A stretch of 64,000 nucleotides of DNA from Eubacteriales bacterium (GTDB lineage: Bacteria; Bacillota; Clostridia; Oscillospirales; CAG-382), in contig JAZQFS010000042.1 of assembly GCA_045539625.1 (NCBI GenBank), positions 171-64,170 on the forward strand, read 5' to 3'. The notes under the pieces were generated by a model. The model was given only the letters and a program-made list of their open reading frames with translations. It did not search any database and was not told the DNA's origin. Made by a program: the position numbers and the translations under genes. Position 1 is the first letter of the stretch; each line of letters starts with the position of its first letter. Below are positions 21,074 through 44,050 of the stretch, piece by piece.

Positions 21074-21107
21074 AAAAAATACGCCATCGTGATAATTTTC
21101 GATGACG
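21074..21107 (-). terminator. rho-independent terminator after the MBL-fold gene
   Basis: Minus strand: CGTCATCG-n10-CGATGGCG (8-bp stem with one G-U pair), followed by TATTTTTT. Confidence 0.5.
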
Positions 21108-21122
21108 TTTCCCGATAAACTG

Positions 21123-22754: not shown

Positions 22755-22859
22755 AATGTCACCTTCTTAGGTTCATTATAGCATTTTTAGAGGTGGTTGT
22801 CAATGTACAGTGTTTTATTATAACATATATTTTGGCTGAGGTGCGATGTCAACATCATA

Positions 22860-23321
22860 CTACATCTCACCGATATTTACAATTCTCACAGACTGCCGTT
22901 TCTTTGCATATTCAAGAGTTTTCGCCGCACCTCCGAAGGAGTGTTGCACAAAGCAAACCAAAACAGCCGCATTATCTACCATATACTGATTAGCTTTGAT
23001 TATCTGCAATTGCTTAGGTGTTTTCGGCGGCATATCCGCAACAAGAATATTATCATAATCTTTATAATACTGCTCTTTACAGGTATTAATTTCCGAAGTC
23101 AGATAAGGTATGACAAGATTGAGCATCAAGGACGGGTATTTTCCTTTCAGTTCCCTTACTGCTTTTGCACAAAGCTTATCGAAAGCACCGTAATTTCCCA
23201 CCCAAAATTCGTTTATTTGTTCCGTCAAAATCAATTCTTCAACCGAAGATTTGAGGTTTTTATATATTTCATCTGTTCCGTAAAGCTTCGAGTGACCTGC
23301 AAAGCAACATATCTTTATCAT
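22860..23321 (-). CDS. SLOG-fold protein, YpsA/DUF1273-like
   Basis: MIKICCFAGHSKLYG...INEFWVGNYGAFDKLCAKAVRELKGKYPSLMLNLVIPYL...ANQYMVDNAAVLVCFVQHSFGGAAKTLEYAKK follows the pattern of the B. subtilis YpsA family (G-x-G-x-D, PF..., GG-T). Confidence 0.7.
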   Translation of the reverse strand: MIKICCFAGHSKLYGTDEIYKNLKSSVEELILTEQINEFWVGNYGAFDKLCAKAVRELKGKYPSLMLNLVIPYLTSEINTCKEQYYKDYDNILVADMPPKTPKQLQIIKANQYMVDNAAVLVCFVQHSFGGAAKTLEYAKKRQSVRIVNIGEM

Positions 23322-23477
23322 TTTTACACCTTCTTCACATTCAATAAAACACTTTACATCATTGTAAAAGCAATCTTTTTTGGTGTATTATACCACGCTT
23401 AAGTGCTATTGTCAATCAATTCTGTTGTTTTATCAACCTTACAGATTGTCGATTATACTTTGAAACAGGGGTATAAT

Positions 23478-23726
23478 ATGTATGTAGAGGTGAGGAAAGT
23501 GAAAAATGAGCATTTCGATATTTGGTTAAGCATCGGTTTAAATATTTTGCATTACAGAAAAGAGCAAGGAATGACTCAAATGCAGCTTGCAGACAAAACG
23601 GGCATAAGCAAGAATCATATGCAGAGAATCGAAACCGCCGCCTGCTCCTGCACACTTGACACGCTTATTGACATTGCCGATGCGTTGAACATTCCGCTGA
23701 AAAAGCTTTTTGAATTTAAAGACTGA
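23478..23726 (+). CDS. XRE family HTH transcriptional regulator
   Basis: LNILHYRKEQGMTQMQLADKTGISKNHMQRIETAACSCTLDTLIDIADALNIPLKKLFEF is a canonical HTH_3. The start is uncertain: ATG at 23478, or GTG at 23499 preceded by GAGGTGAGG. Confidence 0.8.
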   Translation: MYVEVRKVKNEHFDIWLSIGLNILHYRKEQGMTQMQLADKTGISKNHMQRIETAACSCTLDTLIDIADALNIPLKKLFEFKD

Positions 23727-23731
23727 TTTAA

Positions 23732-23767
23732 GTTGTCTCATTACTTTGTTTTGAGACAGCTTTTTTT
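23732..23767 (+). terminator. rho-independent terminator after the XRE gene
   Basis: GTTGTCTCA-n11-TGAGACAGC followed by TTTTTTT. Confidence 0.55.
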
Positions 23768-23852
23768 ATTGTTTTTGCACAGTTCAGAGGGCACCGATTT
23801 CTTCGTCCCTGTTTAGGGCAAAAGTAACTGTCAGCTTTCCGGCATATAAAAG

Positions 23853-23886
23853 AAAAAGCAGGTAACAGCACTTTGCCGTTACCTGC
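23853..23886 (-). terminator. rho-independent terminator after the 1856-aa gene
   Basis: Minus strand: GCAGGTAAC-n11-GTTACCTGC followed by TTTTTCTTTT, 32 nt after the TGA at 23918. Confidence 0.6.
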
Positions 23887-23917
23887 AAAAACATATTATT
23901 TTGTCACAGTTTTATAC

Positions 23918-26900
23918 TCAGCTTACCGAAAAGCTTTCATCAACGCTTTCACAAAGGGGTTTCAATGAACCAAGACTGTCAAACAGCATAATCTTATAGC
24001 TGCAAACACCCTCGGCATCAAAATTAAAGACTGCCGCCGTGTTTTGTGCCGATACGGGTTTTATCTGCATACCAATATAACTGCCGTTTTCGCCGTAAAG
24101 TGCAAGGACAGCTTGGGCATTATCCACGCCCTCGTCAAGTACGGCGTTATAAGTGCAGAAATACTGCGTTTTTACCGTCTCGCCGTTTTCGTTCACTTCT
24201 GCAACCGTCACAACGGCACTGTCAGAGGCTATCAAACCCAGCTTATTTTGGTATTCTCTGACAAGAGTCTGACTGCCCTGTGCTTTTACGTATCTTGAAT
24301 TTGCTTCAAGTGTTTTTTCTCCAAGATCAATTTCAACATAGCCCTGAGGTTTATTTGTTCCTGTCACAACTACATTTGCATCGCCACTTGCCGAAAGTGT
24401 GCCCTGTGCATCAATTTCCCCGAAGATATAGTTTCCTGCACCCAAAGTCATACAAGCGTCCTTATGGATATTCACCTTATCTGCCGTCACGAGGTATTGT
24501 CCCGAAGAAATTACGGTATTCTTATGAATATTGATTTCACGAAGCTTCATATCCCCCGTCACATTTTCAAGGCTTCTTTCAAATTCAATATAGTCAACGG
24601 TAAGTGCCGCATCAATACAGTTTGGAACAAGTCTGAAGCCTGTTATTATGCCCGTAACATCTGAAATATCAAAGGAATACTCATTCATTAATGTATCGGG
24701 AATACTCTTTGTACAGGTTATTTCTCCGTCTTTTGTTGTAAGCACAAGTGTAAGAGATGCAGGAACAACGTCAATCATGGAAATTGCAAGCTTTGTATTA
24801 AAGCAGGAGTATTTTTCAGCATCAACAAGCAGGGTGCTGTCATAGATGGAAACACCGCCCTCATAGGAGGTAACGCTTGCAATACCGTTCTGCACCTTTC
24901 CGTGGAAGCCGCCGAGAGAAATGCCCTCTGTATCGCCGTCTGTTTCAAAGTACCAGCTATCGGCATATTCCCAAACAGCGTACACTGTCACGTTTTTATC
25001 GGCAGTTACCGTCTTGACTGTCTTTTCGCTTCCCTCTTCCGTTGTCCAGCCCTTGAACTTATAGCCTGTTCTTTCGGGAACAATTGACGAGAGTGTATAT
25101 TCTCCCTTGGCATAAGCATCGCTTTCGGGAAGACCTGTAACCTCATCATCTGCACCTGCCGAGTATGAAACGGTATAGCAGGGTGTCTGTCCTGTTACGG
25201 TAAATGTTCTTTCGGCAAAAATCGTATCGTCATATGCACATACTGCCTTTACCGTCACCGTACCGTTATTTACGGGTGTGACAGTGCCGTCAGCACCGAT
25301 TGTTGCAATTCTTTCATCATCAACGCTCCAGTTAACCTTATCCGTTGCATCGTCAAGTGTTACCCTGACGGAAAGAGATGTTTCTTTGCTTATTACATCA
25401 TCGCCCAAAATTTCAATGCTGTCTGGCATATAGATATACTGAGCTTCAATTACACGGGGTATTGCCTGTCGGAGCTGTGCAAATACACGCTTTGCAATTT
25501 CGTCCATACCAAGGTCACCTGGATGGCTTCTGAACTCGATTCTTCCGTCGCCAAGAAGGTCATCATAGCCCGGATACTGAGCATATGCAAGGTAAGGATT
25601 ATACTTCCAGCCGCTATTTCCTCTGTCGTAGGTTACGCCGTCCTTTACAAGATACCTGTTATCAGGATTAACCACGCTGTAGGAGTTAATATCTCTCATA
25701 TCGGCAACGTAAAAGCCGTAAACCTTTGCGTATTCCATTGCAGCCCTTGCTCTGTTACAATCGGAAAAGCTTGTGATTATCACAACAACGGAATTTTCAG
25801 GTTTATGCTCTTTGATTTTAGCATACAGCGTATCGTAGAACAGGCACGCCACCTCATAATTATCGGTTTTTAAGTTTTCACCAAGCTGGATTGTGATAAT
25901 ATCGGGCTTTTCGGTTTCAAGGTGCTCTATTCTGTCGGCAAGTGAATTTACAATACTGTTCTTACTGTATTCCTTATCCCAGCCCTCAAAGTTTGTGGTA
26001 TCGTTTGAATCGGCAAGTCCCTTCTTCCATGCAGCCTCTGTATCGGAGCTTGCGAAAACCTCGCCTGTCACCTTTGAATTAAGCTCTGTTCTTAAGTAAT
26101 ACTGTATTCTATGGAAATAGTCAAGCTCAGGATCTGATGCCGCCATTCCTCGAAGCGGCTCATCTGCCTTCATCCATATTGAATAGTTTGGATTATAGCC
26201 GTGACGCAGGTATGAGTTACCGATACTCATAAGCTTTAAGTCATAAACCAACGTCTTTTTTCTCTGTCCCGATATTTCTATTTCAACGCTGTCGGTTGCG
26301 TTTTTATCGGCAAAAGCTGTTGCCGTTACAACAACCGTTCCGTTACCGAGAGCAGTAAGTGTAACCGTACCGTCATCGGCAATATCAAGTCTTGCAATAT
26401 TTGTATCGCTTAACGTATAGTCAACCGATTCATCTTCAAGTGCAATATTTGAAAACAGCCGAGAGGTCAGCGTTACACTGCCGCCGTCAAGTGTGATTTT
26501 ATCATCAGAGGCTGTAAGGCTCAGTGCCGCCTGCAACGGCGTTCCCTCGTTAGGGTTGGTTTTGGAAAAATACATTTCGTCCACCTCTATATTATTCATT
26601 TTCTGATAAGTTACAGGCTTTTTCACATAGTAAAAATCGCCGTCTTTTTCATCGTATACTCCGTCACTGTCAACGTCATACAGGAAGTATTCGTTGGAAA
26701 TGATTGAGCCTGTTATATTGGCAAACATCATTTTTGCGAAATATTCGCCGTTTGCACCGCTTACAAGAGGTCTTAAATCAAGGACGTAGGTTTTATAATC
26801 CGTTGTCATATAAAAGCTTTGAGACACTTTCATAGCTGCGGTATACACAGGGTTTGAGCCGAAGCCCGGGTATACGGAGATACCTCTTTCACCTGCGCTG

Positions 26901-29488
26901 TCGCTTCTTGCAACAACGCAAAGATAGGGATGGGTAGCAATAGACACCTTTTCTGAAAGTATGGATACAGGATTGCTGATGCTTCCGCTTGTATGCTTTT
27001 TCACCTTATACACGCTTTCGCCGTTGACGGTGGTTTCGGTGAGCATTGCACCTGCGGCAGAGGTAAGATCGGGTGTCTTTGCAAAGGTTGACACAATATT
27101 CACGGAAGTGCCTGTATTTGTTGTTGCAAAGCTATGGTAGCCGCCTGAAGTAAAGCCTGTATTTGAAGGATCGTTAAAATCCCATTTATATGCAACATTT
27201 TCAGATATGTCAGGCTCTTCGCTTGTTGTGTAAACATTTACAAACTCGGTATTTGTGCCCGACGTGTTGAGGTTGAAGGCAAGCATAAAGTCATCGATAT
27301 ACTTTGCACCCTCTGTAATATTGGTAAGCTCGCAAAAGCCCGTCTTTGTTCCGTCGCCGTTTGACACAAACTCCGAAATATATGCCCAGCACTTTCTGTT
27401 ATTATCAAAGCCTGTTTCCTTATCCGTTTTATAGTACACGGTTATGCAATTATCGGCGGTGCTGTCTTCGGTAATGGTTATCACAAAATACTTCTGAGTT
27501 GCAGGGGCGCTTGTATTTATAAATCTGATGCCGCCGCTTGTTGCGGTATTTTTGGTATAGGTGACCTTAAGGTTACCGTCGGTTGTAAAATCTGCTGTTG
27601 TGTGATGTACTCCGTTTGTATTTTTCATAAGGAACACATCGTTATAATAGGTTCCGAATTCAAGAGCACCCGATGTCTGTTCCAGAAAATCTATATAATA
27701 GCCGTACTTTGATTCATCAACGCCTACATAAATATCACGTGACACCGACACAGGCGAATTTTTATCGTTGCCTGTTACGGTAACGGTAGCGACACCTGTT
27801 TTTGCCTTGGCTCTGATTTTAAGAGTATTATCCGCCATGACTCTATAGGAAACAACGTCATTATCGTCCTTCACCGACCAGGTATAAGAGGTATCGTACA
27901 CACCTTCAAGCTCGCACGCAAACAATGCCTTAAGGTCTATTTCCTGCCCTGCCTTTGTAAGATATGTAACATCGTTGCTGAAGATATAGGAAGGATTGAC
28001 ATTAAGCGTGGGATAAAGCTTTGTGCCATGCACCGTTATGCCGTCGCCTGTCTGTGAAAGTGTGATTTTTTCTATACAGCCCTGCCAGCCTTCAAGCAAA
28101 GGAAGCTGAAGGAAAAAGTCACGTTTTTTTGTTTCGGCAGGAACGGTTATTTCCGCTTTTACGCTTGTTTTATCCGTCACAAAGGTAAATTCCAGCTTTC
28201 CGTCAAGCTGTGATGAATTGTCTGCCTTTACCGTAATATAATCGTAAGCAAAGGTATCAGCGGAAAATTCTGTCTGCTGTGCCGAAGCAAAATCAAGCAC
28301 ACAAGGCTCTGTTGCAACGGTGACGGTTCTTGTTAAGGTTTTCACCTCGGTATCGGCATAGCTAAACGTAATTACTGCATTACCCTGTGAAAGTGCCGTA
28401 AGAGTTGCGGTGCCGTCGGTATTTTTTTCAACACTTACAACGTCCGAATTACTGCTTGACCAGGATATTTTACTTACATCAATTTCAGGTTTGCCCGAAA
28501 GAGCCGCACTTGCTATTACGCTCTTATCTATTTTGTCAAGCTTTCCGTCAAGTTCAATATATGCTCCGTCAAAGGCATAGCTTTCCCTTGTTGCATACAG
28601 CACAATATCCTTATTATTATCTGCCGTCAAAGCAATTGAGGTAACAGGCACACCGCCCACCTCTGATGCCCAGCCTGCGTATGTAGTAAGTCCTGCAGAA
28701 ATTTCTGAGGGTGTAGAGCTTGTAAGCAGGTTTCCCTCCTCATCTGCTGCAATATAGTCTGTTTTTACTACATTCTTTCCGTCTGCACTGTAATAGGTCA
28801 CCTTATATGCAGGTGCCACAATCATATTATCAAAGTAGTACATAACATCTGCCGTATCCGAAGCCGTAGTCTGTGATGTAAACACAAGTCTGTGGCAGTA
28901 GGTACTGCTGACGGGAGAACCGGTCTGGTTAAGCGAAAGCGCATCAACTATTTTTCCGTAGCTTTGCCGGCCTTTTGTATAATCCACGGAAAAGCTCTGA
29001 ATGGAGTCGGCGGGAACCGCTCTTGCTCCCATTATCCAGAAAGCTTTCTTGTCGGTATACTTTCCTTCCTCCGACACCGCTTTATCATAATCAAAGGCGA
29101 TATACAGATGATTATGTCCTACAAGCGAGCCAAGATCTGAGCCGAAAGGAACAATCATATAAAAATAATCTGCATTCGCATCTTCGGGAAGCAGCCATCT
29201 GATAACGGTATCTTTTTCGTTATCGGGGTTCTTTACGGCTGAAAGAACACCCTTTCCCGAATCAATTTTCACTGCAAGGCTATCAAAATTTTCTCCTGTC
29301 AGCGGCTCTTTTGTGCCTGTCAGAATATTGATTCCGCGGCTGACAACGGTTTCGCCGTAAAGCTCAGAAAGGTCTGCGTTTACCTGTTCCGATGCCGTTC
29401 CTGTGTTTTCTGAAGGTACGGTAGCCGAAAACGCCGTCAAAGAAAAAATCAAACCAAGCAAAAGGAGTATGCCTAAAAGCTTTTTCAT
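23918..29488 (-). CDS. giant secreted modular protein with Ig-like (Big_2-type) domains, an SGNH/GDSL-type hydrolase domain and Listeria-Bacteroides-type repeats
   Basis: Signal peptide MKKLLGILLLLGLIFSLTAFSA. Big_2-like segments (ISWSSSNSDVVSVEKNTDGTATLTALSQGNAVITF; LSDTNIARLDIADDGTVTLTALGNGTVVVTA; WSVDDERIATIGADGTVTPVNNGTVTVKA). SGNH blocks: LKLMSIGNSYLRHG (I), IITIQLGENL (III), FRSHPGDLGMDEIAKRV (V). Repeat: YTVSYSAGADDEVTGLP...YKFKGWTTEEGSEKTVKTVTADKNVTVYAVWEY. No SLH or LPXTG motif seen. Confidence 0.85.
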   Translation of the reverse strand: MKKLLGILLLLGLIFSLTAFSATVPSENTGTASEQVNADLSELYGETVVSRGINILTGTKEPLTGENFDSLAVKIDSGKGVLSAVKNPDNEKDTVIRWLLPEDANADYFYMIVPFGSDLGSLVGHNHLYIAFDYDKAVSEEGKYTDKKAFWIMGARAVPADSIQSFSVDYTKGRQSYGKIVDALSLNQTGSPVSSTYCHRLVFTSQTTASDTADVMYYFDNMIVAPAYKVTYYSADGKNVVKTDYIAADEEGNLLTSSTPSEISAGLTTYAGWASEVGGVPVTSIALTADNNKDIVLYATRESYAFDGAYIELDGKLDKIDKSVIASAALSGKPEIDVSKISWSSSNSDVVSVEKNTDGTATLTALSQGNAVITFSYADTEVKTLTRTVTVATEPCVLDFASAQQTEFSADTFAYDYITVKADNSSQLDGKLEFTFVTDKTSVKAEITVPAETKKRDFFLQLPLLEGWQGCIEKITLSQTGDGITVHGTKLYPTLNVNPSYIFSNDVTYLTKAGQEIDLKALFACELEGVYDTSYTWSVKDDNDVVSYRVMADNTLKIRAKAKTGVATVTVTGNDKNSPVSVSRDIYVGVDESKYGYYIDFLEQTSGALEFGTYYNDVFLMKNTNGVHHTTADFTTDGNLKVTYTKNTATSGGIRFINTSAPATQKYFVITITEDSTADNCITVYYKTDKETGFDNNRKCWAYISEFVSNGDGTKTGFCELTNITEGAKYIDDFMLAFNLNTSGTNTEFVNVYTTSEEPDISENVAYKWDFNDPSNTGFTSGGYHSFATTNTGTSVNIVSTFAKTPDLTSAAGAMLTETTVNGESVYKVKKHTSGSISNPVSILSEKVSIATHPYLCVVARSDSAGERGISVYPGFGSNPVYTAAMKVSQSFYMTTDYKTYVLDLRPLVSGANGEYFAKMMFANITGSIISNEYFLYDVDSDGVYDEKDGDFYYVKKPVTYQKMNNIEVDEMYFSKTNPNEGTPLQAALSLTASDDKITLDGGSVTLTSRLFSNIALEDESVDYTLSDTNIARLDIADDGTVTLTALGNGTVVVTATAFADKNATDSVEIEISGQRKKTLVYDLKLMSIGNSYLRHGYNPNYSIWMKADEPLRGMAASDPELDYFHRIQYYLRTELNSKVTGEVFASSDTEAAWKKGLADSNDTTNFEGWDKEYSKNSIVNSLADRIEHLETEKPDIITIQLGENLKTDNYEVACLFYDTLYAKIKEHKPENSVVVIITSFSDCNRARAAMEYAKVYGFYVADMRDINSYSVVNPDNRYLVKDGVTYDRGNSGWKYNPYLAYAQYPGYDDLLGDGRIEFRSHPGDLGMDEIAKRVFAQLRQAIPRVIEAQYIYMPDSIEILGDDVISKETSLSVRVTLDDATDKVNWSVDDERIATIGADGTVTPVNNGTVTVKAVCAYDDTIFAERTFTVTGQTPCYTVSYSAGADDEVTGLPESDAYAKGEYTLSSIVPERTGYKFKGWTTEEGSEKTVKTVTADKNVTVYAVWEYADSWYFETDGDTEGISLGGFHGKVQNGIASVTSYEGGVSIYDSTLLVDAEKYSCFNTKLAISMIDVVPASLTLVLTTKDGEITCTKSIPDTLMNEYSFDISDVTGIITGFRLVPNCIDAALTVDYIEFERSLENVTGDMKLREINIHKNTVISSGQYLVTADKVNIHKDACMTLGAGNYIFGEIDAQGTLSASGDANVVVTGTNKPQGYVEIDLGEKTLEANSRYVKAQGSQTLVREYQNKLGLIASDSAVVTVAEVNENGETVKTQYFCTYNAVLDEGVDNAQAVLALYGENGSYIGMQIKPVSAQNTAAVFNFDAEGVCSYKIMLFDSLGSLKPLCESVDESFSVS

Positions 29489-29535
29489 AACAAAATCTCC
29501 ACTCTGATAATATTTGCACAGTATCTTTTATTTTA

Positions 29536-29564
29536 ATTTTACACAAATTTCTCTATTTAGTCAA
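29536..29564 (-). promoter_or_regulatory. candidate sigma-70 promoter for the 1856-aa gene
   Basis: Minus strand: TTGACT (29564-29559), 17-nt spacer, TAAAAT (29541-29536), about 48 nt upstream of the ATG at 29488. Confidence 0.4.
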
Positions 29565-29695
29565 GTAACAAAGCAACACTGTTTTTGTACAAATCAATTC
29601 TAACACAAATTACAGGACAAATCCCGCTAAAATCTATGAAGATACGGACAAAATTTGTCATAATGTTATAATTACGGCAAGACAACGGGGATTTT

Positions 29696-29921
29696 TTACG
29701 AAAAAAAGCTCTGACTCGGTTGAATCGAAGCTTTGTGTTTTATTATGTTGGAAAGTGGTGTGGCGGAGCACTTGGAGATTCTGCGGAGGATATTGCGGTA
29801 TCGGTCATAATGTCTTATTGTTCCTTCTCTCAAATTCCGATGTCTGCGGTACTCAAGGTACTTATCACAGCCTTCCTCAAAAGTGATAGCTCTGGCTTCT
29901 GACATTTGTAATTTTTTTCAT
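29696..29921 (-). pseudogene. tyrosine-recombinase (phage-integrase family) N-terminal stub, frameshifted and truncated
   Basis: ...AITFEEGCDKYLEYRRHRNLREGTIRHYDRY... matches the SAM-like N-terminal pattern of site-specific integrases and the second stub at 54132..54245. The upstream ATG (29921, MKKITN) is out of frame. No catalytic domain follows. Confidence 0.5.
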
Positions 29922-29951
29922 TTTAAAATCCCTTTCAAACAGACAAAAAAA

Positions 29952-29995
29952 GTTAGACACATCATAGGAATAAATTCCAAAATGATGTGTCCAAC
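29952..29995. terminator. long hairpin between the GGGtGRT 3' fragment and the integrase stub (left copy)
   Basis: GTTAGACACATCA-n18-TGATGTGTCCAAC, a 13-bp stem with one A-C mismatch. It is the counterpart of 54276..54318. Confidence 0.5.
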
Positions 29996-30061
29996 AAAAA
30001 AAATATACTATTTTAATGTCAAGAGATTTTAAAAAGTTGTAAAAACCTTGATATTACGTGA

Positions 30062-30420
30062 TTACTTGCTTGCTTCTTCAACCGCAACAGCCACTGCAAC
30101 TGTAGCACCAACCATGGGGTTGTTACCTGCGCCGATAAGTCCCATCATTTCTATATGAGCGGGAACGGAGGAAGAACCTGCGAACTGAGCGTCGCCGTGC
30201 ATTCTACCCATAGTATCTGTCATACCGTAGGAAGCAGGACCTGCAGCTATGTTATCGGGGTGAAGTGTACGTCCTGTACCGCCGCCGAAAAGGTAACCAC
30301 CAATCATTCCGCCTTCAAGTGAAAGGGATATTTTTTCTTCAACGCTGCCCTTTTCGTTTTGTGCCACGGTTATAGTGTACCGCAGGCGTAGAATATATTA
30401 TCTTGTTGGATGCAGTTCAT
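30062..30420 (-). pseudogene. chimeric pseudogene: 5' end of an MBL-fold gene (homolog of 21123..22754) fused to the 3' end of a GGGtGRT gene (homolog of 54407..55405)
   Basis: From ATG 30420: MNCIQQDNIFYACGT, then a 1-nt deletion (frameshift), then ..VAQNEKG|SVEEKISLSLEGGMIGGYLFGGG|TGRTLHPDNIAAGPASYG...VAVAVEEASK*. An internal deletion at NEKG|SVEEK removes ~54 codons relative to the full gene. The fusion point is CCGCCGCC (30279-30286), which is present in both parents. About 45 nt of the MBL upstream region are also duplicated. Confidence 0.75.
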
Positions 30421-30480
30421 ATCATTCACCTCGTATGATGGTATTATAGCATTTTATGGAAGGAATGTCAATTATGAGCA

Positions 30481-30512
30481 AAAAAAAGAGCAATACGTTT
30501 TTTGTATCGCTC
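30481..30512 (-). terminator. rho-independent terminator at the end of the EPS operon
   Basis: Minus strand: GAGCGATAC-n7-GTATTGCTC followed by TTTTTTT, 20 nt after the EAL gene stop (30533). Confidence 0.6.
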
Positions 30513-30532
30513 TCAGTAAACATTTCAAGTAT

Positions 30533-31453
30533 TTAATACTTCTCGATAAAAGACTCGCACTCTTCAAGAGGAAGGGGTTTAGAATAGTACCACCCCTGAA
30601 TAAAATCGCATTTAGACTTAGATACGAGGTCATTCTGTTCCTCTGTTTCAACACCTTCACAGATAACTGACAAATTAAGGTTATGGGCAAGTGCAATAAT
30701 ACCTGCGAACAGCTCCTTACCCCGCTGAGTTCCCGTTTTAAGAAGAATATCTCTGTCAATCTTAACTATATTTATGGGATAATCGCACAGATTTGCAAGA
30801 GAGGTATATCCGCTTCCAAGGTCATCAAGATAAATCTTAAATCCAAGCTCACGGCAAAGTCTGACATTTTTCTTAGCCGTTTCTCTATCCTTTTCTATTG
30901 CATCCTCTGTAATTTCAATGGCAAGCTTTGATTTATCAAAATCGTAGCTTTCTGATATAGCCTTCAGTTTATCAATACAATCTTCTTCAGAAAGTGTTAT
31001 CCGTGTAAAGTTACAGGAAATTGTAATATCCTTATACTCGGTATCCTTCCATTTTTCAAGCTGACGGCAGGCAAGGTCAAACATATAGAAATCGTGCTGA
31101 CTGATAAGTCCTGATGTTTCCATATGTCCGATATAATTACCCGGTCCCAAGATTCCCTTTTTAGGGTTATCCCATCTTGAAAGAGCTTCGGCAGAAACAA
31201 TTCTTTTTGTTTTATTATCCACAACAAACTGCAAGTACATCTTGAATTCATTGTTTCGGATTCCCTCCAAGATACTTTCTGCAGCATCGTTATCTTCGGT
31301 TTTGCCTGCATTATCGGCATTGTTCTCCTCAGACGGATTGATATTTTCAAAGCTTCTTTTTTCAATTCGTTTTATGCGAAAAAGTAACGATACGACAACA
31401 GCAGACTGCACAAAAAACACTAATATGAGTATAGTAAGAATTAACTCCTCCAT
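30533..31453 (-). CDS. membrane-anchored EAL-domain c-di-GMP phosphodiesterase
   Basis: One N-terminal TM segment. EAL signature residues are present: SAEALSRW, CNFT, EITE, DDLGSGYTSL, KIDR, EGVETEE, QGWYYSKP. Confidence 0.85.
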   Translation of the reverse strand: MEELILTILILVFFVQSAVVVSLLFRIKRIEKRSFENINPSEENNADNAGKTEDNDAAESILEGIRNNEFKMYLQFVVDNKTKRIVSAEALSRWDNPKKGILGPGNYIGHMETSGLISQHDFYMFDLACRQLEKWKDTEYKDITISCNFTRITLSEEDCIDKLKAISESYDFDKSKLAIEITEDAIEKDRETAKKNVRLCRELGFKIYLDDLGSGYTSLANLCDYPINIVKIDRDILLKTGTQRGKELFAGIIALAHNLNLSVICEGVETEEQNDLVSKSKCDFIQGWYYSKPLPLEECESFIEKY

Positions 31454-31500
31454 TTTCTGTACACCTCCAATTTTAATATATTATTTATACTTTCCAAATG

Positions 31501-32427
31501 CTATTGCTTCTTTTCTGCACTGTTTACACTGGAAGATATGATATATCTGGGTCTTCCCTTTATTTCTTCGTAAATCCGTGCAATATAGTAGCCGATTATA
31601 CCAAGACTTATCATAATTATACTACCGATAAAAATAGTGATTATGATTACCGTTGTCATACCTTCAAGTGCTCTGCCGATTATTTTATCAATCAGTGCCC
31701 ACACGCCGAAGATGACCGATATTGCAAGCATCACAACACCGAGACCCGTTACTATCTGCATTGGTGCAGTTGAAAACGAGGAAATATTGGAAACCGCATA
31801 CTTTATAAGCTTCCACGTTGACCACTTTGACTCGCCGTCAACTCGTTCTTCAACATCATATTCTACAGTAGCTGTTTTATAGCCAACCCAATAGGACAAT
31901 GCTCTGAAGAAGCCTCTTTCAGGCATACTGTTAATAACATCAACCACTTTTCTGTCAAGCAGCTTAAAGTCAGAGGAGTTTGCCATATCAAAGCCTGCCA
32001 TACGGCTGATTACAGAATAGAACATTTTTGCTGCTATTCCGTGAAGCATTTTTTCCCGTCCTCGGCTGCTTTTTATTCCCTCAACAACCTCATATCCCTG
32101 TTCCCACAGGCGGTACATCTCCACAATTTTCTTCACAGGGTGCTGAAGATCGCAGTCTATTACCACGGCACAGTCGCCTTTTACTTTGGAAAGACCTGCG
32201 GTTATGGCAGACTCTTTCCCGAAATTTCTTGAAAAATGAAGTCCCGAAACATTTTCTGCCTCTTTTGACAGTTCTGTTATCATTTCAAAGGTTTTATCCT
32301 GTGAACCGTCGTCAACAAAAATAATTTCGCAATCAATATTATTTTCCAAAAGGAGATTATGTATTTCGGAATATGCACGTTTTATACATTTTTCCTCATT
32401 ATAGGCGGGAATAATTACGGATAGCAT
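31501..32427 (-). CDS. GT2 polyprenyl-phosphate hexosyltransferase, GtrB/ArnC-like (two C-terminal TM helices)
   Basis: MLSVIIPAYNEEKCI...IIFVDDGSQDKT...VIDCDLQHP plus a C-terminal membrane hairpin, which is the GtrB-type architecture. Confidence 0.85.
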   Translation of the reverse strand: MLSVIIPAYNEEKCIKRAYSEIHNLLLENNIDCEIIFVDDGSQDKTFEMITELSKEAENVSGLHFSRNFGKESAITAGLSKVKGDCAVVIDCDLQHPVKKIVEMYRLWEQGYEVVEGIKSSRGREKMLHGIAAKMFYSVISRMAGFDMANSSDFKLLDRKVVDVINSMPERGFFRALSYWVGYKTATVEYDVEERVDGESKWSTWKLIKYAVSNISSFSTAPMQIVTGLGVVMLAISVIFGVWALIDKIIGRALEGMTTVIIITIFIGSIIMISLGIIGYYIARIYEEIKGRPRYIISSSVNSAEKKQ

Positions 32428-32436
32428 TTAATCACC

Positions 32437-33822
32437 TTACTGTTTTTCAAATAATGTTTCAAGCTTTGTGACAGGCATGGGACGGTAAAAATAATACCCC
32501 TGAAGCATATCACAGCCTGCTTCAACAACCGTTTTTCTGTGTTCCTCGGTTTCTATGCCTTCGCACAGCGTTTTAAAGCCAAGGTCATGGGCGGTGTTGA
32601 TAATATTTTTAAGAATCACAAATCCCGTTTTATTTATTGAATTCTGGGATATTGATTTATCAATTTTTACGATGTTAATGTCAAAGTCGGTAAGATCGCC
32701 AAAGCTTGTATATCCTTTGCCGAAATCGTCCAAGAGTATGCGCATGCCTTTTTCCCTCAGACGTTTAAGATTCTTTGTCATCACCGATTTTTCGTCATCA
32801 TTAAGGTCTTTATCCTCAAGAATTTCAACTGCAATACAAGAATAATCAACTCCGTATTTATCGACTATTCCCATAATACGGTCTGCAAGCTCCATATCGC
32901 AAAGAGTAAATCTTGAAAAGTTAATGGTATACACATACTTTGCACGTTTTGCTTTATCGCTTGATATCCATTTACAGTTTTTCTCAAAGATATAGTAATC
33001 GAATCTTTCATTAAGTCCCACGTTGTTAACCGCAGAAAGGAAATGCCGGGGAGACAGCACGCCTTCGGTTTCGGAGTTTAATCTTGACAAAACCTCAGCA
33101 CCTATAATCTTACCTGATTTTGCATCTATTATAGGTTGATACTCAAGAAAGAATCTGTTATTATCAATTTCGCTTTGAATATTGTTTTCAATTTTGATTT
33201 TTCTTTCAAAAGCCTTACCGCTTGTGTTATCCCACTGACAATGAAGCACGTCTTTATCCTCAGCCATACTGCAAGCCTGTTTTGCTCTTGACAGGGCGGT
33301 TTTGAAGTTAACCTCATTTGAGCTTGTGACATGGTATCCGAAGTTTACACGAACAGCATTTACTGCACCGTGTTTAACAAAGGCTTCGTTTATTTCCTCC
33401 ATACACTTATCTATGCAAGCTTCTGTTTTATCCGCCTCAAGATAGGTCAAAGCAACAAAGTTTTCACTTCCGTAAATTGATATCTCGCCGTCTGCCTTAA
33501 GGCTCAAATGGCTGAAAAGTATCTTTTTGATACGTTCATACATTCTTGATGCCTTTGATTCGGAATACAGTCTTTTCATACTGTCGAAAGAAACCGACAC
33601 ATATACAATACACCTTGTATTTCGAAGTGATGCCGCTTTCTCAAAATCGTTTTCTATTTTTCCTATACCGCAAAAGCTCTTTTCAGAAGTGCCTTTTGCA
33701 GTTTTTACGGATTTAAAAGTGAAGTACAGTCCCACAAGTCCCATTGCTATAAAAATCAAAACCAGTATAGTCAATATTACATAGGGAAATTGAAAAATCC
33801 GTGATTCAAAAAATTTCATCAT
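32437..33822 (-). CDS. membrane-anchored degenerate-GGDEF + EAL protein
   Basis: TM segment, then a GGDEF-fold region with YGSENF in place of GGDEF. The EAL domain has an EVL variant (GAEVLSRL) and intact INFS, EILED, DDFGKGYTSF, KIDK, EGIETEE and QGYYFYRP motifs. Confidence 0.8.
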   Translation of the reverse strand: MMKFFESRIFQFPYVILTILVLIFIAMGLVGLYFTFKSVKTAKGTSEKSFCGIGKIENDFEKAASLRNTRCIVYVSVSFDSMKRLYSESKASRMYERIKKILFSHLSLKADGEISIYGSENFVALTYLEADKTEACIDKCMEEINEAFVKHGAVNAVRVNFGYHVTSSNEVNFKTALSRAKQACSMAEDKDVLHCQWDNTSGKAFERKIKIENNIQSEIDNNRFFLEYQPIIDAKSGKIIGAEVLSRLNSETEGVLSPRHFLSAVNNVGLNERFDYYIFEKNCKWISSDKAKRAKYVYTINFSRFTLCDMELADRIMGIVDKYGVDYSCIAVEILEDKDLNDDEKSVMTKNLKRLREKGMRILLDDFGKGYTSFGDLTDFDINIVKIDKSISQNSINKTGFVILKNIINTAHDLGFKTLCEGIETEEHRKTVVEAGCDMLQGYYFYRPMPVTKLETLFEKQ

Positions 33823-33836
33823 TTATGCTCCCGATA

Positions 33837-34901
33837 TCAGTTTTCAAAAATTGGGAATTCATCTGTTCCCGCTGTTCTGCGAAGACCTCTTGCCTTTGCT
33901 GCGGCACAGCACTTTTCAATGTCTTTTTTTGCACTGTGCTTTCTTCTGACAATATCTCTTACAACAAACAAAGGATTGAATTTTAGCATTGCCCTTAAAA
34001 CATCCTTCTTTGATACGCCGCTTCTCTTATATTCTGCAAGAATTTCAATAAGCACATAGTTTACCGTTTCTTTATCTATTTTACCACTGCTTATTCTTTT
34101 GAACCATTTTGCAAATTCAAGATATTTTGAAACATCCGCCTTTTCTTTAAAATAAACACCGCTTATATAAAACTCTTTCATGCTCTCATCCATAGAAGAA
34201 GCAAGAGTACCATAATACTTATCCTGTATTTTAAGCACTTCGGTATGCTGTCTTTCAAGGGTTGTGCTTGTAATCTGCTTATCATGGAGGCGGTATATGA
34301 GAAGACATTCGTCAAGAATCTGCATTTTCTGTGAGTTCATTGCCATTCTTGTCCACAGTTCAAGGTCCTCGGTACAGGTAAGAGTAGTATCATAATTGTA
34401 TTTTTTCATAACCTCAGCTTTTGCAATAACACCGGGATGAAGAATGGGATTTGCCACAAAAAGCATTGCACGAACCGCTCTATCGTCGCACCGTCCGCCT
34501 GCTCCGCCTGACATATAAACTCCGTTTTTTACAGTCATAAATCTGCAGGAGGACAAAGCTACATCATTATGCTCCTCCATAAACTTAAACTGCTTTTCAA
34601 GTCTTTCGGGAAGACAGATATCATCGGCATCCATTCTTGCTATGTACTTTCCTTCAGAAAGAGAAATTGCCTTATTAAGGGATGTGGGAAGTCTTAGATT
34701 AACTTCATTATTATGTACCTTTATTCTTTCATCACTTTTGGACAGTTCACAAAGAATTTCAGCTGTAGAGTCTGTGGAGCAGTCGTTTATTATCACAAGC
34801 TCCCAGTCCTTAAAGGTCTGGTTTATGACGCTTTCTACAGCTTCTTTCAGATATGCTTCGCCGTTATATACGCTCATTATTACTGAAATTGCGGGTTTCA
34901 T
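33837..34901 (-). CDS. family 2 glycosyltransferase
   Basis: ISVIMSVYNGEAYLKEAVESVINQTFKDWELVIINDCSTDST...MDADD. Confidence 0.85.
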   Translation of the reverse strand: MKPAISVIMSVYNGEAYLKEAVESVINQTFKDWELVIINDCSTDSTAEILCELSKSDERIKVHNNEVNLRLPTSLNKAISLSEGKYIARMDADDICLPERLEKQFKFMEEHNDVALSSCRFMTVKNGVYMSGGAGGRCDDRAVRAMLFVANPILHPGVIAKAEVMKKYNYDTTLTCTEDLELWTRMAMNSQKMQILDECLLIYRLHDKQITSTTLERQHTEVLKIQDKYYGTLASSMDESMKEFYISGVYFKEKADVSKYLEFAKWFKRISSGKIDKETVNYVLIEILAEYKRSGVSKKDVLRAMLKFNPLFVVRDIVRRKHSAKKDIEKCCAAAKARGLRRTAGTDEFPIFEN

Positions 34902-34911
34902 GATGGGTGCT

Positions 34912-35931
34912 TCATCCTTTCTTGAGGACTCTTTTTATATTCTTACACATATTGAGAAAGTAAAACGCTGTTCTATAGCATTTTTTCTGCATTAAAAACA
35001 CGGTTATTTTACTTTTACGTGATATACTCTCAAATCTCGCTTTAGAGATTCTCTCTCCATGTATGGAGTTTTTGATATTTTCTTTAAGCGGCTTTATGCT
35101 TTTAAAATGGTTACCTTCTGCTGCCGATGCAAGTATTGCAAAGCACATAAAGCAGGAATAACGGCAAATTTGTTCTTCAAAATCAGGAATCACTGTGAAG
35201 TCATTTTTACCTATTTCATTTATCACGTTTTCCACAAGGAAAATCTGTTTAGTATTAAACTCCTTTGACAGTGAATCTTCTCTTACTGTATACAAATAAG
35301 TTTCTTTTTTACTGATATACACGCTTTTTGCCGCAAGATAGCAAGGCACAACACAGCAAAGGTCTTCGCCAAGAGAGATTGATTCACTGACACTAAGCTG
35401 AATTGGTGTGAGAAGTTCTCTTCTTACAGCCTTTCCCGACAAATAGTAGGAAACGTGATTCATATTCTTATCCATTAAAAGTCTCGGGAAAATATACTGC
35501 TGTATTCCCTTCTCGTCATAAAAGCCTTCTTCAAGACCGTCATTGGTGACATTTACCATTTTTTCGCCTTTTACCCATCTATATGAGAAGGATACAATAT
35601 CACATTTTGTTTCGCATATTTTATTATACGCACATTCAAGTGTATCGTTTTCTATAAGGTCATCGGAATCAAGGTTAAAAACGTATTCACCCACAGCTTC
35701 CTTTATCCCCGCTCTTCTTGCACTTGCAAGACCGCCGTTGCTCTTATGAACAACCTTTACACGGCTATCCTTTTCTTTATAGCTGTCACAGATTGCAGGA
35801 CAGTTATCGGGAGAGCCGTCATCCACAAGAACAAGTTCAAAATCTGAAAAGCTCTGTTTCAACACACTGTCAACACAAGCCTTCAAGTACTTTTCCACCT
35901 TATATACCGGAACTATTACCGAAAAAAACAT
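34912..35931 (-). CDS. family 2 glycosyltransferase
   Basis: FSVIVPVYKVEKYLKACVDSVLKQSFSDFELVLVDDGSPDN...LDSDD. Confidence 0.85.
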   Translation of the reverse strand: MFFSVIVPVYKVEKYLKACVDSVLKQSFSDFELVLVDDGSPDNCPAICDSYKEKDSRVKVVHKSNGGLASARRAGIKEAVGEYVFNLDSDDLIENDTLECAYNKICETKCDIVSFSYRWVKGEKMVNVTNDGLEEGFYDEKGIQQYIFPRLLMDKNMNHVSYYLSGKAVRRELLTPIQLSVSESISLGEDLCCVVPCYLAAKSVYISKKETYLYTVREDSLSKEFNTKQIFLVENVINEIGKNDFTVIPDFEEQICRYSCFMCFAILASAAEGNHFKSIKPLKENIKNSIHGERISKARFESISRKSKITVFLMQKKCYRTAFYFLNMCKNIKRVLKKG

Positions 35932-35940
35932 AGACTACTC

Positions 35941-37008
35941 CTATTTGCTTCTTAATTCAACCAGTAATTTCATAAGAAAATACAATCTGCACTTCATACA
36001 GTATGCAAACACTCTTTGTTTAAGCGGAAGTGTTGCAATGGGATACATTTTCAGAGCTTTTATACTTTGCTTATGGGTACAAATCTTTTTAAGCATTTTC
36101 CCTGTTTCAGAAAACTTGATACCGTTAACTTTACCGTACATTATTTCCTGTGTACAGATAACTCTGCACATAGCCTGCCAAAATCTGTTTATATAGATAC
36201 CGTATTCTTTTTCATCAATGTCGTTTTTAAAATTCTTTTCAACTTCACTCACAAAAACAAGGCTCTTTTCAAATCTATCCTGTTTACGGGATTTTGAAAT
36301 TGAATCTTCATTTCGGCAGTAATTGTAATATGCACCGTCTATTCCCGTAGCCTTACTTATATTGGAAATATAATCAATCATGAAAAGTGCATCCTCCGAA
36401 AGCATTTCACGTTCAGATTTGAAGGTTATTTTATTCTTCTTTATTATCTCAGTTCTGAAAAGATTTTTCCAGATACTCATGCCGTATTTACTGTCGTCGT
36501 CATCCCCCGGCAATGCACCTACAATACCCATTCTCAGTTTTTTCAGCATTTCGGGAGTATCAAAATGAGTATCCTTATCGAAGTAGCTTTTCCTGTCGCA
36601 GCCACCCTTTTCGCTGAACATATTTCCGTCAACAAATATTACCCCGGACATTACAAGGTCACTGTCATACTGTACTGCCTTATTATACAGAGTCTTAAAC
36701 ATACAAGGCTCTGCATAATCGTCGGAATCGCAAAAGCCGACGTATTCTCCGCTGACAAGCTCAAGTCCTGCATTACGTGCATAGCCTGCACCCTCATTCA
36801 CCTTATGTATAACCTTGATTCGGGAATCTTCCTTCGCCATTTTATTACACATTTCAAGTGAAGAATCGGTTGACGAATCATCAACAAGGATTATTTCAAT
36901 ATCACAAAGTGTCTGATTCTGCAACGAGCTTACACATCTTTCAAGATATTTTTCAGCATTGTACACGGGAACAACAATACTGACCTTAGGCTGTGACAAG
37001 TATCTCAC
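35941..37008 (-). CDS. family 2 glycosyltransferase
   Basis: VSIVVPVYNAEKYLERCVSSLQNQTLCDIEIILVDDSSTDSS...CDSDD. Confidence 0.85.
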   Translation of the reverse strand: MRYLSQPKVSIVVPVYNAEKYLERCVSSLQNQTLCDIEIILVDDSSTDSSLEMCNKMAKEDSRIKVIHKVNEGAGYARNAGLELVSGEYVGFCDSDDYAEPCMFKTLYNKAVQYDSDLVMSGVIFVDGNMFSEKGGCDRKSYFDKDTHFDTPEMLKKLRMGIVGALPGDDDDSKYGMSIWKNLFRTEIIKKNKITFKSEREMLSEDALFMIDYISNISKATGIDGAYYNYCRNEDSISKSRKQDRFEKSLVFVSEVEKNFKNDIDEKEYGIYINRFWQAMCRVICTQEIMYGKVNGIKFSETGKMLKKICTHKQSIKALKMYPIATLPLKQRVFAYCMKCRLYFLMKLLVELRSK

Positions 37009-38213
37009 CTCTTAGTTAATCTTTCATATTCCTCGAACAGAATATTGGCGTAGCTTTCTACGCTGAGAATATTATCTTTTTCGTTTTTACAGTTTTGCTC
37101 AAGGGTATTATAATAATCCTCATTTTCCAGTGTCGCTTTGATTTTTTCAGCAATTCCATGAGGTGTCGGTTCATTTACAAGAGTTCCTGTAACGCCGTCC
37201 TTCACAAGCTCTGCCATTCCTCCGCTGTTCATTGTGACAACGGGAACACCCATGGCATGTGCTTCGAGAATTGACAGCGGGCAGTTTTCATAGCATACCG
37301 ACGGAAGCAGCAGCACCTTTGCATTTCCGACAAGCTTTGTCAGTTCATCGCCGGTAAGAAATCCTGCAAGCTTTACATTGGGTATATCTTTAAGAACAGC
37401 CTCATCAGGACCGTTTCCTGCAACAACAAAGTTATATTGCGGCAAAAGCTTTGCCGTACCTGCTATATTTTCGATGCCCTTCTCCTTGGAAAGTCTGCCC
37501 ACATAAGCTATATAATCTTCCCTGTTCCGCTGTGAACCTGAAAACTTTTCTTTATTTATGAAATTATGTATTGTTTTGGTTTTACCTTTATAATACGTCT
37601 TTGAGGACAGCAGTTTATTCTCAAGAAAATTACTTGGGCACACGTACAAGTCAACTTTTTTATAAGTTTTAAGAAGTGAATAAAGCTTTGCTTCCACAAC
37701 TCCCAGTATACTTTTCACCAAAGAGCCGTGGATACATTTATTCTTGATACATCCGATATGCGAGCCCTTCAGGCACTTTTCGCAAGGGGTATTTTTATCA
37801 AAATTATAAAGAAGGTGATTGGGACAAATCATCTGATAGTCATGAACTGTCTGAACAAGAGGAACGCCCTTCTTCTTTACGCCATGAATAATTGAGGGAG
37901 TAAGCTGGAAGTTAATATTGTTCATATGGACGATATCAGGCTTAAAATCGTCTATTACCTGCATAATCTTCTTTTTTGCTTCAAAGGAATAGATAATTTT
38001 AAAGGGATAGAGAAATCTTGCAAGCCCTGTGGAATGAAAGTCCATATTTTTTGTATACAAGCCTTTGGCATTACCCACTGTATTTTTCTCATCGTACATT
38101 CCGAAAAACTGTACCTCATGCCCCATTTTCTGAAAACACTCAGCTAAGTATAACATATAGCTTTCGCTTCCGCCCCTTGGGTAGAGAAATTTATTAACCA
38201 TCAGAATTTTCAT
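37005..38213 (-). CDS. family 4 (GT-B) glycosyltransferase
   Basis: N-terminal MKILMVNKFLYPRGGSESYML and C-terminal Glycos_transf_1 pattern (LLLPSVCYENCPLSILEAHAMGVPVVT). 4-nt overlap with the next gene. Confidence 0.85.
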   Translation of the reverse strand: MKILMVNKFLYPRGGSESYMLYLAECFQKMGHEVQFFGMYDEKNTVGNAKGLYTKNMDFHSTGLARFLYPFKIIYSFEAKKKIMQVIDDFKPDIVHMNNINFQLTPSIIHGVKKKGVPLVQTVHDYQMICPNHLLYNFDKNTPCEKCLKGSHIGCIKNKCIHGSLVKSILGVVEAKLYSLLKTYKKVDLYVCPSNFLENKLLSSKTYYKGKTKTIHNFINKEKFSGSQRNREDYIAYVGRLSKEKGIENIAGTAKLLPQYNFVVAGNGPDEAVLKDIPNVKLAGFLTGDELTKLVGNAKVLLLPSVCYENCPLSILEAHAMGVPVVTMNSGGMAELVKDGVTGTLVNEPTPHGIAEKIKATLENEDYYNTLEQNCKNEKDNILSVESYANILFEEYERLTKR

Positions 38214-44048: not shown

Positions 44049-44050
44049 TT

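Follow-up and report, generated by a model that had tools for sequence, protein, structure and literature searches.

Organization of the fusion segment

The 64,000-nt stretch of Eubacteriales DNA analyzed here (contig JAZQFS010000042.1; referred to as the window) contains, on its minus strand at 30475..30062, a short segment in which the beginning of a gene for a metallo-β-lactamase (MBL)-fold protein is fused to the end of a GGGtGRT gene. Intact copies of both genes, termed the resident genes below, are found elsewhere in the window, MBL at 21123..22754 and GGGtGRT at 54407..55405. The order of elements read along the minus strand is a gene for an EAL-domain protein, a terminator, a promoter, MBL codons 1–25, MBL codons 80–102, and the last 74 codons of GGGtGRT. 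The fusion reads ...EKG followed by SVEEKISLSLEGGMIGGYLFGGG, and then continues in frame to the GGGtGRT stop at 30062. Two MBL alleles have to be distinguished: version A, which is represented in the fusion and is intact on metagenome contig L072, and version B, the resident gene. The features of the segment, all on the minus strand, are as follows.

30486..30514, minus strand: intrinsic terminator of the upstream EAL gene (30533..31453), from a terminator scan (fold -14.1 kcal/mol, z -4.7), identical in L072
30443..30471, minus strand: orphan promoter of the truncated MBL gene, TTGACA-17 nt-TG-TATAAT, 12/12 match to the sigma-70 consensus
30347..30420, minus strand: MBL version A codons 1–25 (MNCIQQDNIFYACGT-ITVAQNEKG), from alignment with L072
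30347..30355, minus strand: surviving copy of the 9-nt direct repeat GAAAAGGGC, scar of a 162-nt deletion
30277..30355, minus strand: MBL version A codons 77–102 (EKGSVEEKISLSLEGGMIGGYLFGGG), 77/79 nt identical to L072 10229..10307
30277..30286, minus strand: junction microhomology GGCGGCGGTA, 10 nt, common to MBL version A (..FGGG-I) and GGGtGRT (..GGG-T)
30168..30286, minus strand: GGGtGRT gene nt 775–893 (GGGTGRTLHPDN...AGSS), species-type, 1/119 mismatch versus the resident gene
30062..30167, minus strand: GGGtGRT gene nt 894–999 including the stop, a divergent 3′ end of the phage-carried kind, 12/106 mismatches versus the resident gene
30062..30367, minus strand: mechanical 101-aa open reading frame (ORF) across the fusion with a GTG start, from the ORF list and Pfam
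29952..29995, minus strand: hairpin separating the GGGtGRT stop from the integrase start (fold -23.2 kcal/mol, z -7.8)
29808..29921, minus strand: tyrosine integrase vestige, codons 1–37 with a 1-nt insertion; homology ends after ...GGAACAATAAGACATTA

A three-piece anatomy had been proposed in a first-pass annotation of the window, and all of the pieces are recovered on the minus strand by self-BLAST and Pfam, joined as proposed at Gly-Gly-Gly codons, which establishes the makeup of the fusion. When 29400..30600 is compared with the window, 29808..30286 matches 54133..54631 (78.6% over 501 columns, E 5e-117), 30270..30355 matches 22439..22526 (85%, E 1.5e-22), and 30347..30455 matches 22680..22787 (77%, E 7e-14). 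The resemblance of the pieces to the resident genes lies far beyond chance. The 101-aa ORF matches the Pfam GGGtGRT family (PF14057) with E 3.4e-44 at profile positions 256–327 only, short of the full-length domain of 327 positions. With such a score (E 3e-44), this ORF would be annotated as a GGGtGRT gene, though it is only a stump. The Lactamase_B domain, which the intact MBL protein carries at residues 283–474, is not part of the N-terminal MBL fragment (codons 1–25 and 80–102).

The MBL piece carries two lesions. A single C is missing after MBL codon 15, between 30376 and 30375, resulting in a TAA stop at 30372..30370; this is the 1-nt frameshift that had been noted before. The second lesion is an in-frame deletion of 162 nt (54 codons, MBL codons 26–79), and in the intact L072 gene GAAAAGGGC is found at both ends of the missing stretch. 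An internal deletion had likewise been recognized, at a CCTTTTC-type microhomology. The roughly 45 nt of promoter-proximal homology described earlier is present as well and includes the complete 12/12 promoter (30471..30443); a ribosome-binding site (AGGTGA) and, at 30420, an ATG come next on its 3′ side.

The fusion point had been placed at an octamer, 30279–30286. Eight nucleotides are indeed shared with the resident MBL gene, and comparison with the true MBL parent extends the microhomology to 10 nt (GGCGGCGGTA, 30277..30286). The k-mer that spans the junction is TACCTTTTCGGCGGCGGTACAGGACG.

The MBL piece and its parent

A search with the full-length resident MBL protein returned protein P0122, 81% identical, which is encoded on contigs L072 and L073 from JGI metagenomes. 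P0122 and the fragment agree exactly in the N-terminus, MNCIQQDNIFYACGTPITVAQNEKG..., and in GSVEEKISLSLEGGMIGGYLFGGG. The gene order in L072/L073 is ...Wzy, glycosyltransferases (GTs), EAL, GT2, EAL, 112 nt, an intact MBL gene (543 aa), WbsX, a 739-aa gene, and a 1609-aa gene. The orphan promoter region of the window is collinear with the EAL–MBL intergenic region of L072, which is 112 nt long in both, and the terminator of the EAL gene (30486..30514) lies within the block that the window and L072 have in common. The alignments between L072 and the window are as follows.

L072 1..10075 and window 40420..30347: 99.3% identity
L072 10229..10307 and window 30355..30277: 97.5% identity
L072 MBL beyond the junction and the resident MBL: 77.7% identity
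L072 WbsX and window WbsX: 83–87% identity
L072 1609-aa gene and window 1603-aa gene: 78.7% identity

The fragment is 97.5–99% identical in nucleotide sequence to the L072 gene (MBL-A) and 77–85% identical to the resident gene. Compared with L072, the stump has 5 substitutions in 265 nt in addition to its two deletions, and its 5′ stretch has 3 mismatches and 1 gap in 186 nt. The parent of the MBL piece is thereby established, and the earlier view that the pieces derive from functional but diverged alleles and not from the resident genes is borne out, with P0122 as an MBL allele that resembles the fragment far more closely. The same view held that the fragment had been copied into its present position; instead, it is the in-place stump of the EPS-block MBL gene that normally follows the EAL gene, the exopolysaccharide (EPS) block being the gene cluster directly upstream.

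The resident intact MBL gene (version B) occupies 21123..22787 on the minus strand together with its own promoter (coding region 21123..22754). It is 77.7% identical in nucleotide sequence to L072 MBL-A and 99% identical in amino acid sequence to P0121, from conspecific contigs, and it sits in the diverged right-hand block. A hybrid origin, in which the resident gene would contain the 3′ part of version A, was rejected, as the identity to L072 is 77.7% along the whole length.

Other searches returned little. No candidates came from a protein search in which the conceptual MBL N-terminus of 48 aa was the query, and a scan of the genome_contigs collection with MBL gave L004 (78% amino acid identity) as the sole close relative, as distant from the fragment as the resident gene is. 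Two DNA scans of the metagenome_contigs collection, one degenerate and one exact, gave no match; this collection does not contain L072, which has both patterns, so these scans are uninformative and do not indicate absence. Look-ups of exact products gave no match for the resident MBL, the 101-aa ORF, the EAL protein, the 308-aa GT2, the integrase vestige of 69 aa, or the GtrA ORF (taken in a long TTG-start form that exceeds the called gene), in a collection that evidently does not contain the genome of the window.

The 543-aa MBL family (21123..22754 and P0121–P0144) has a Gly-rich, repeated N-terminal half with several GGG motifs, followed by a ComEC-like Lactamase_B domain, and its alleles are 75–81% identical to each other. 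A WbsX glycosyltransferase gene follows the 543-aa MBL gene in every examined contig that shows the region downstream of MBL.

The GGGtGRT piece, hairpin, and integrase vestige

The first-pass annotation had limited homology on the GGGtGRT side to the last codons of the gene. The homology runs 254 nt beyond the stop, to 29808, at 69% identity, and this extension comprises the hairpin (29995..29952) and the first 37 integrase codons (29921..29808). The matching region is the left-hand copy of a direct repeat of ~480 nt.

54133..54631, minus strand: left-hand copy of the ~480-nt direct repeat, made up of the final 225 nt of the intact GGGtGRT gene (54407..55405), the hairpin, and an integrase vestige of 37 codons

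The resident integrase vestige lies at 54245..54135, with a TAA stop at 54134..54132. In alignments, the hairpin is conserved in the resident copy, in L011, L012, and L013, and in the phage contig L015. A profile built from the two integrase vestiges gave 120 matches, short proteins with Phage_int_SAM domains, and a tblastn search of plasmids and phages with the 38-aa integrase start gave no match at E <= 0.01.

The GGGtGRT piece is itself composite. Over nt 775–893, it has a single mismatch to the resident gene in 119 nt and 3 to L001, and L012, from a different lineage, has 12 mismatches to the resident gene over nt 775–894. At nt ~894, divergence from the resident gene switches from 1/119 to 12/106 (Fisher p 0.0008), and this switch coincides with the start of the GGGtGRT copy of phage L015 at about nt 901 (...AHVEMMG). 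The resident gene is 99.6% identical to L001 over nt 1–809. The displaced tail therefore consists of species-type gene sequence and a different, phage-derived terminal module. Divergence of the piece from the resident gene is not uniform but concentrated in nt 894–999 and the following 254 nt. A better-matching allele, for which the first-pass annotation had proposed a search of related genomes, was recovered for MBL (P0122, L072/L073); for GGGtGRT, no better allele was found among all 77 loci fetched, in which the best match to the 3′ module of the fragment is 86%.

The integrase vestiges share an end point. Homology between them, as well as their homology to the intact phage integrase, ends at one nucleotide, after GGAAC(A/T)ATAAGACATTA (codon 37), at 29808 and 54133 in the window, at ~10113 in L011, at ~6113 in L012, and at ~6110 in L013. 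Three unrelated sequences follow this breakpoint in different lineages. Several database ORFs of the L015-type integrase family also stop at codon ~37 or have the final ~45 codons attached to codon ~37 (P0002, P0119). These ends are not explained by a single old deletion, so the integrase gene may contain a hotspot of recombination.

Phage modules at the 3′ end of GGGtGRT

In the IMG/VR phage contig L015, tail-fibre and holin-like genes are followed by the last ~33 GGGtGRT codons, the hairpin known from the window, and an intact integrase gene for 312 aa at 6001..6939. When scanned for the 74-aa C-terminus of GGGtGRT, 56 IMG/VR viral contigs proved to carry GGGtGRT 3′ ends, and an integrase lies within ~1 kb downstream in at least 11 of these, counted as contigs. 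In five of the contigs, the integrases belong to the L015 family (45–69% identical, or identical, to that of L015), and in six they are 26–32% identical to the 492-aa integrase of L001. L044, L047, and L048 contain the full GGGtGRT gene followed within ~135 nt by an L015-family integrase. Intact homologues occupy the integrase position in L015, L044, L047, L048, and L066; the window has 37-codon vestiges only.

L047 and L049 derive from one 46-kb contig (IMGVR_UViG_3300029175_000063), a provirus in which a perfect 336-nt GGGtGRT 3′ repeat is present in copies ~38 kb apart, with the integrase gene following the left copy. L065 and L066 (IMGVR_UViG_3300018878_002442) contain two tandem modules, each a GGGtGRT 3′ fragment and an integrase, 7.8 kb apart.

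A second integrase family is associated with the same site. In the same-species metagenome contigs L001–L003, the GGGtGRT protein is identical to that of the window and nucleotide homology ends at the stop codon. Directly after this stop (L001 4299..6291, and likewise L002 and L003) lie a gene for a 492-aa tyrosine integrase and an HTH_17 (excisionase-like) gene in convergent orientation. Of the 12 GGGtGRT mismatches between L001–L003 and the window, 9 fall within the final 190 nt, among them a serine codon switch (AGC to TCT). The second integrase family therefore swaps the GGGtGRT 3′ end as well.

Collectively, these comparisons establish a phage module at this position; the last ~100 nt of GGGtGRT, the hairpin, and the integrase start are brought by temperate phages that integrate into the gene. 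As in an attachment-type repeat, the last 225 nt of GGGtGRT are repeated in the window, and phages carry replacement ends that keep the frame. Temperate phages of at least two integrase families commonly integrate at the 3′ end of GGGtGRT, and recognizing this site helps to delimit prophages and islands in Clostridia-type genomes.

In the window, residue 259 is the first one of the displaced copy. Other GGGtGRT fragments with a start inside their contig begin at residues 224, 274, 277, 296, 303, 308, and 311, the starts at 296–311 being those of segments carried by related phages. The GGG motif was considered as the integrase crossover site and dropped, as the fragment starts and the divergence switch lie elsewhere. 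An attachment crossover inside the integrase at codon 37 was also dropped, as the repeat of the L047/L049 provirus ends 5 nt past the GGGtGRT stop.

The EPS block and its flanks

The two copies of the ~480-nt repeat enclose a block of ~24 kb devoted to EPS and cyclic di-GMP (c-di-GMP) functions.

30533..53817, minus strand: block enclosed by the repeats, with Pfam matches to GT1, GT2, Wzy, Bac_transf, GtrA, GtrII, YdjC, a hexapeptide transferase, two GGDEF, and two EAL

By Pfam, the genes between the repeats are EPS, GGDEF, and EAL genes only, with no phage or transfer genes. The GC content is 35–41% inside the block and 41–46% in both flanks, ~5 points lower inside.

The block and its flanks have different relatives. 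The identity of the block is 99.1% to L011, 99.3% to L072, and 98–100% to L012. In L012, the flank from ASRT to GGGtGRT is 78–93% identical to the window (7–36% differences per 300-nt window, with 118 mismatches in GGGtGRT), and identity rises to 96–100% from the GGGtGRT stop codon onward. In L072, the flank beyond the junction is 13–22% different from the window. The right-hand block of the window, 29992..22861 and 22821..14591, is 93–97% identical to conspecific contigs L011 and L075–L077, and L001–L003 are 98.5–99% identical to the window upstream of GGGtGRT. L002 and L003 come from two of the four samples behind L011 and L075–L077, and L001 comes from a fifth sample of the same series. These comparisons establish the identity of both blocks. 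The EPS block thus moves between lineages, and the fusion lies at its right-hand edge. A block identity of 98–100% in three contig lineages, against flank differences of 12–22% in the two that are comparable, is direct evidence of a recent exchange of cell-surface traits.

The conspecific contig L011 differs at the connector between block and flank. In place of 496 nt of the window (29993..30488), L011 has 3318 nt (6612..9929), which contain a 45-aa ORF, a GH39 gene, a 64-nt GGGtGRT 3′ remnant, a terminator, and an unrelated 293-aa Lactamase_B (MBL) gene. The 64-nt remnant is identical to the resident gene of the window (64/64). The integrase vestige of L011 is a mosaic, resident-like at its 5′ end and fragment-like at its 3′ end.

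Synonymous bias of the differences

Synonymous and nonsynonymous differences between the pieces and the resident genes were counted by the Nei-Gojobori method, giving proportions of synonymous (pS) and nonsynonymous (pN) differences, and compared by Fisher test. The MBL pieces differ from the resident MBL gene by 20.5 synonymous and 4.5 nonsynonymous differences (pS 0.64, pN 0.038; Fisher p 5e-13). The GGGtGRT piece differs from the resident gene by 8.7 synonymous and 4.3 nonsynonymous differences (pS 0.16, pN 0.026; Fisher p 6e-4). The first-pass annotation had proposed a dN/dS-type check, with equal frequencies of the two kinds of difference as the result that would speak against it; a synonymous excess is found on both sides. 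The hand count that had led to this idea, ten third-position differences in 24 codons, becomes 11 synonymous and 0 nonsynonymous differences in the 26 codons of the EKGSVEEK...FGGG stretch, the ten plus one in the junction codon, all of them synonymous as noted before.

The GGGtGRT-side differences are mostly synonymous because each terminal module had to complete a working GGGtGRT frame. Synonymous-biased divergence in a pseudogene can mirror the history of its parents and need not mean selection on the pseudogene itself.

Proposed mechanism of the fusion

The minus-strand segment 30475..30062 is probably a non-functional recombination scar at the right-hand edge of the ~24-kb EPS/c-di-GMP block. 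Its features are best read as the product of an illegitimate recombination that joined one version of the GGGtGRT...MBL interval to another, a likely origin that would also have left the ~480-nt direct repeats around the block. Recombination of this type had been one of two routes offered in the first-pass annotation, and the comparative data bear it out in its essentials.

This lineage or its close relatives would contain a single chromosomal interval in two versions. Version A would read GGGtGRT, hairpin, integrase vestige, GGDEF, EPS cluster, EAL, MBL-A, WbsX..., and version B would read GGGtGRT, hairpin, integrase vestige, 1856-aa Big_2 protein, YpsA, MBL-B, WbsX.... The 3′ ends of GGGtGRT in the two versions would differ through phage-brought modules. 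In a single illegitimate join at GGCGGCGGTA, version A would have been broken after MBL-A codon 102 and version B at GGGtGRT nt 775. The most economical route would be homology-facilitated illegitimate recombination (HFIR), in which upstream homology would hold one end of the incoming version-A DNA and the microhomology would serve to join the other. The product would retain an intact GGGtGRT gene (from the A side) and an intact MBL-B gene, with a dead MBL-A-5′::GGGtGRT-B-3′ stump between them, and both cargos would be kept; the stump would have lost its 1 nt and 162 nt afterwards. The MBL-A parent is intact in L072/L073, and the 3′ module of the presumed GGGtGRT-B parent is matched at 86% at best.

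HFIR is known from Streptococcus pneumoniae, Acinetobacter baylyi, and Pseudomonas stutzeri, with junctions at 3–10 bp of microhomology (PMC3240628). The GGCGGCGGTA motif, common to L072 MBL-A and GGGtGRT, falls within this range. As in HFIR, variant DNA would be held by homology at one end and joined by microhomology at the other, here 10 nt that are G+C-rich, and the join lies inside a conserved gene next to a possible homologous anchor region.

Several points weigh against this reconstruction. The insert of ~24 kb is far larger than the ~1 kb typical of experimental HFIR (PMC3240628). A pure version-B chromosome, with a GGGtGRT end matching 30062..30286 followed by the 1856-aa gene, would be expected to exist, and none was found among the loci fetched. 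The GGGtGRT end is a mosaic in every comparison, such that the left crossover, presumably homologous, cannot be assigned to a single point, and the process is deduced from its product only. The direction of transfer, with version B as the presumed recipient, is judged from GC content and the 99% identity across lineages only. In addition, the different connector of L011 at the same place shows that the locus has been rearranged more than once.

Comparison with related systems

HFIR has also been proposed as the mechanism of sequential effector displacement at type VI secretion (T6SS) loci of Vibrio cholerae and of the orphan 3′ ends of Rhs and contact-dependent inhibition (CDI) genes (PMC5361080). 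Similar to the arrangement in the window, an incoming module takes the conserved 5′ part of a gene and the old 3′ part persists downstream as an orphan. The window differs in that there is no toxin-immunity logic; a housekeeping-type GGGtGRT tail is fused to an unrelated MBL stump with no evident function.

The icd/icdC pair of E. coli K-12 is a further parallel. There, the cryptic prophage e14 inserts at the gene's 3′ end and provides a substitute for it (PMC13626634), and the other end is marked by a pseudogene copy of the C-terminus whose differences are mostly conservative or synonymous, an arrangement comparable to the GGGtGRT module of the window, to L015, and to L047/L049. The window departs from icd/icdC in that its repeats enclose an EPS cluster and not a prophage, in that an integrase start comes after each repeat copy, resembling a tandem or two-version layout, and in that the displaced copy is bounded on its left by an illegitimate join to a different gene and not by an attachment-site boundary.

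The scar is of a known kind, a by-product of ordinary bacterial gene exchange, and although well resolved it is of modest interest. It represents a natural illegitimate-recombination junction resolved to the nucleotide, with one parent recovered intact and the other recognized as a displaced gene tail; such junctions are otherwise seen mostly in laboratory transformation experiments. The fusion also fixes the right-hand boundary of the 24-kb EPS/c-di-GMP block.

Alternative explanations

A two-step route would lead to the same final structure with the same microhomology: a larger version-A segment with a complete MBL-A gene and the sequence after it would first be placed upstream of a complete version B, and a later deletion between the two copies of GGCGGCGGTA would generate the fusion. 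Deletions of this type occur here, as the stump already contains a second one (162 nt, between 9-nt repeats), and the connector region has been repeatedly remodelled, as seen in L011. This route needs an extra intermediate with two complete GGGtGRT and two complete MBL genes, which no contig shows, and we consider it unlikely.

Site-specific recombination is a further candidate. The integrase family of the 29808..29921 vestige could have recombined its GGGtGRT site with a look-alike in MBL-A, through aberrant excision or secondary integration, leaving an attR-type junction. The EPS block is bounded by GGGtGRT 3′ direct repeats, each with an integrase start after it, and is 99% identical in lineages with flanks that are 12–22% diverged. 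Phages of this integrase family attach in GGGtGRT, tandem arrays exist (L065/L066), and the likeness near the join exceeds 10 nt (GGCGGCGGTATTGAAG in MBL-A versus GGCGGCGGTACAGGAC). Against this, no GGGtGRT fragment elsewhere starts at residue 259, where the fusion lies; the divergence switch at nt ~894 is ~120 nt downstream of the join, which places the likely crossover region away from the junction; both integrase genes of the window are 37-codon vestiges; and phage and transfer genes are absent inside the block. An integrase-mediated origin is regarded as very doubtful. A broader proposal, likewise improbable, is that the EPS/c-di-GMP block is a present or recent mobile integrative island that attaches at the GGGtGRT 3′ end, the fusion being its attR, formed when the integrase excised the island through the MBL look-alike GGCGGCGGTA..., and that the codon-37 breakpoint, with its three unrelated right-hand partners, is a second, unrecognised site for site-specific exchange of cargo downstream of GGGtGRT.

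The 101-aa ORF might be a working gene kept by selection, with transcription from the retained promoter and translational reinitiation at a GTG that lies 2 nt past the leader stop. The promoter and ribosome-binding site are perfect, and both deletions and the fusion hold the frame from the GTG (30367) after the leader stop (TAA 30372..30370). However, the conspecific strain represented by L011 does not have the whole segment, an identical product is not on record, no Shine-Dalgarno sequence precedes the GTG, the product would be the last 22% of the GGGtGRT domain only, and the parents' histories fully account for the synonymous bias. A working gene is therefore highly improbable.

A tandem duplication of the resident GGGtGRT...MBL interval, with the fusion as its novel junction, later divergence of the copies, and loss of the second interior, had been the other route offered in the first-pass annotation; although the order GGGtGRT ... 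fusion ... MBL is what a duplication junction would give, the unequal divergence of the halves from the residents (pS 0.64 versus 0.16) argues against a single duplication of the resident interval, a decaying duplicate would not be expected to differ so overwhelmingly at synonymous sites, identity to L072 is 99.3% on one side of the junction and 78–87% on the other, the MBL half is 97.5–99% identical to the intact L072 gene, to which the resident MBL is 78% identical, and in self-BLAST the interiors on either side of the fusion share only the 480-nt repeat and the MBL 5′ pieces, such that we give this origin almost no weight. A chimera assembled from contigs of two strains is just as hard to credit: both versions of the locus do occur in metagenomes, but the parents share 10 nt at the join, far under any assembler k-mer, misjoining of intact genes would not make the 1-nt and 162-nt deletions of the stump, and in L011, an independent assembly from another sample, the integrase vestige and the 1856-aa gene likewise come directly after the EPS/EAL block.

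Neighboring regions

Directly after the second integrase vestige, 23918..29488 of the window encodes the 1856-aa secreted Big_2 protein, which is ~95% conserved in L011 and L075–L077. On the other side of the block, a region of ~4 kb (57385..61385), which contains a histidine kinase/response regulator pair (58768..60536) and unknown ORFs, is absent from the same-species contig L001. At the corresponding position, L001 contains a TetR-family gene and a 116-aa ORF.

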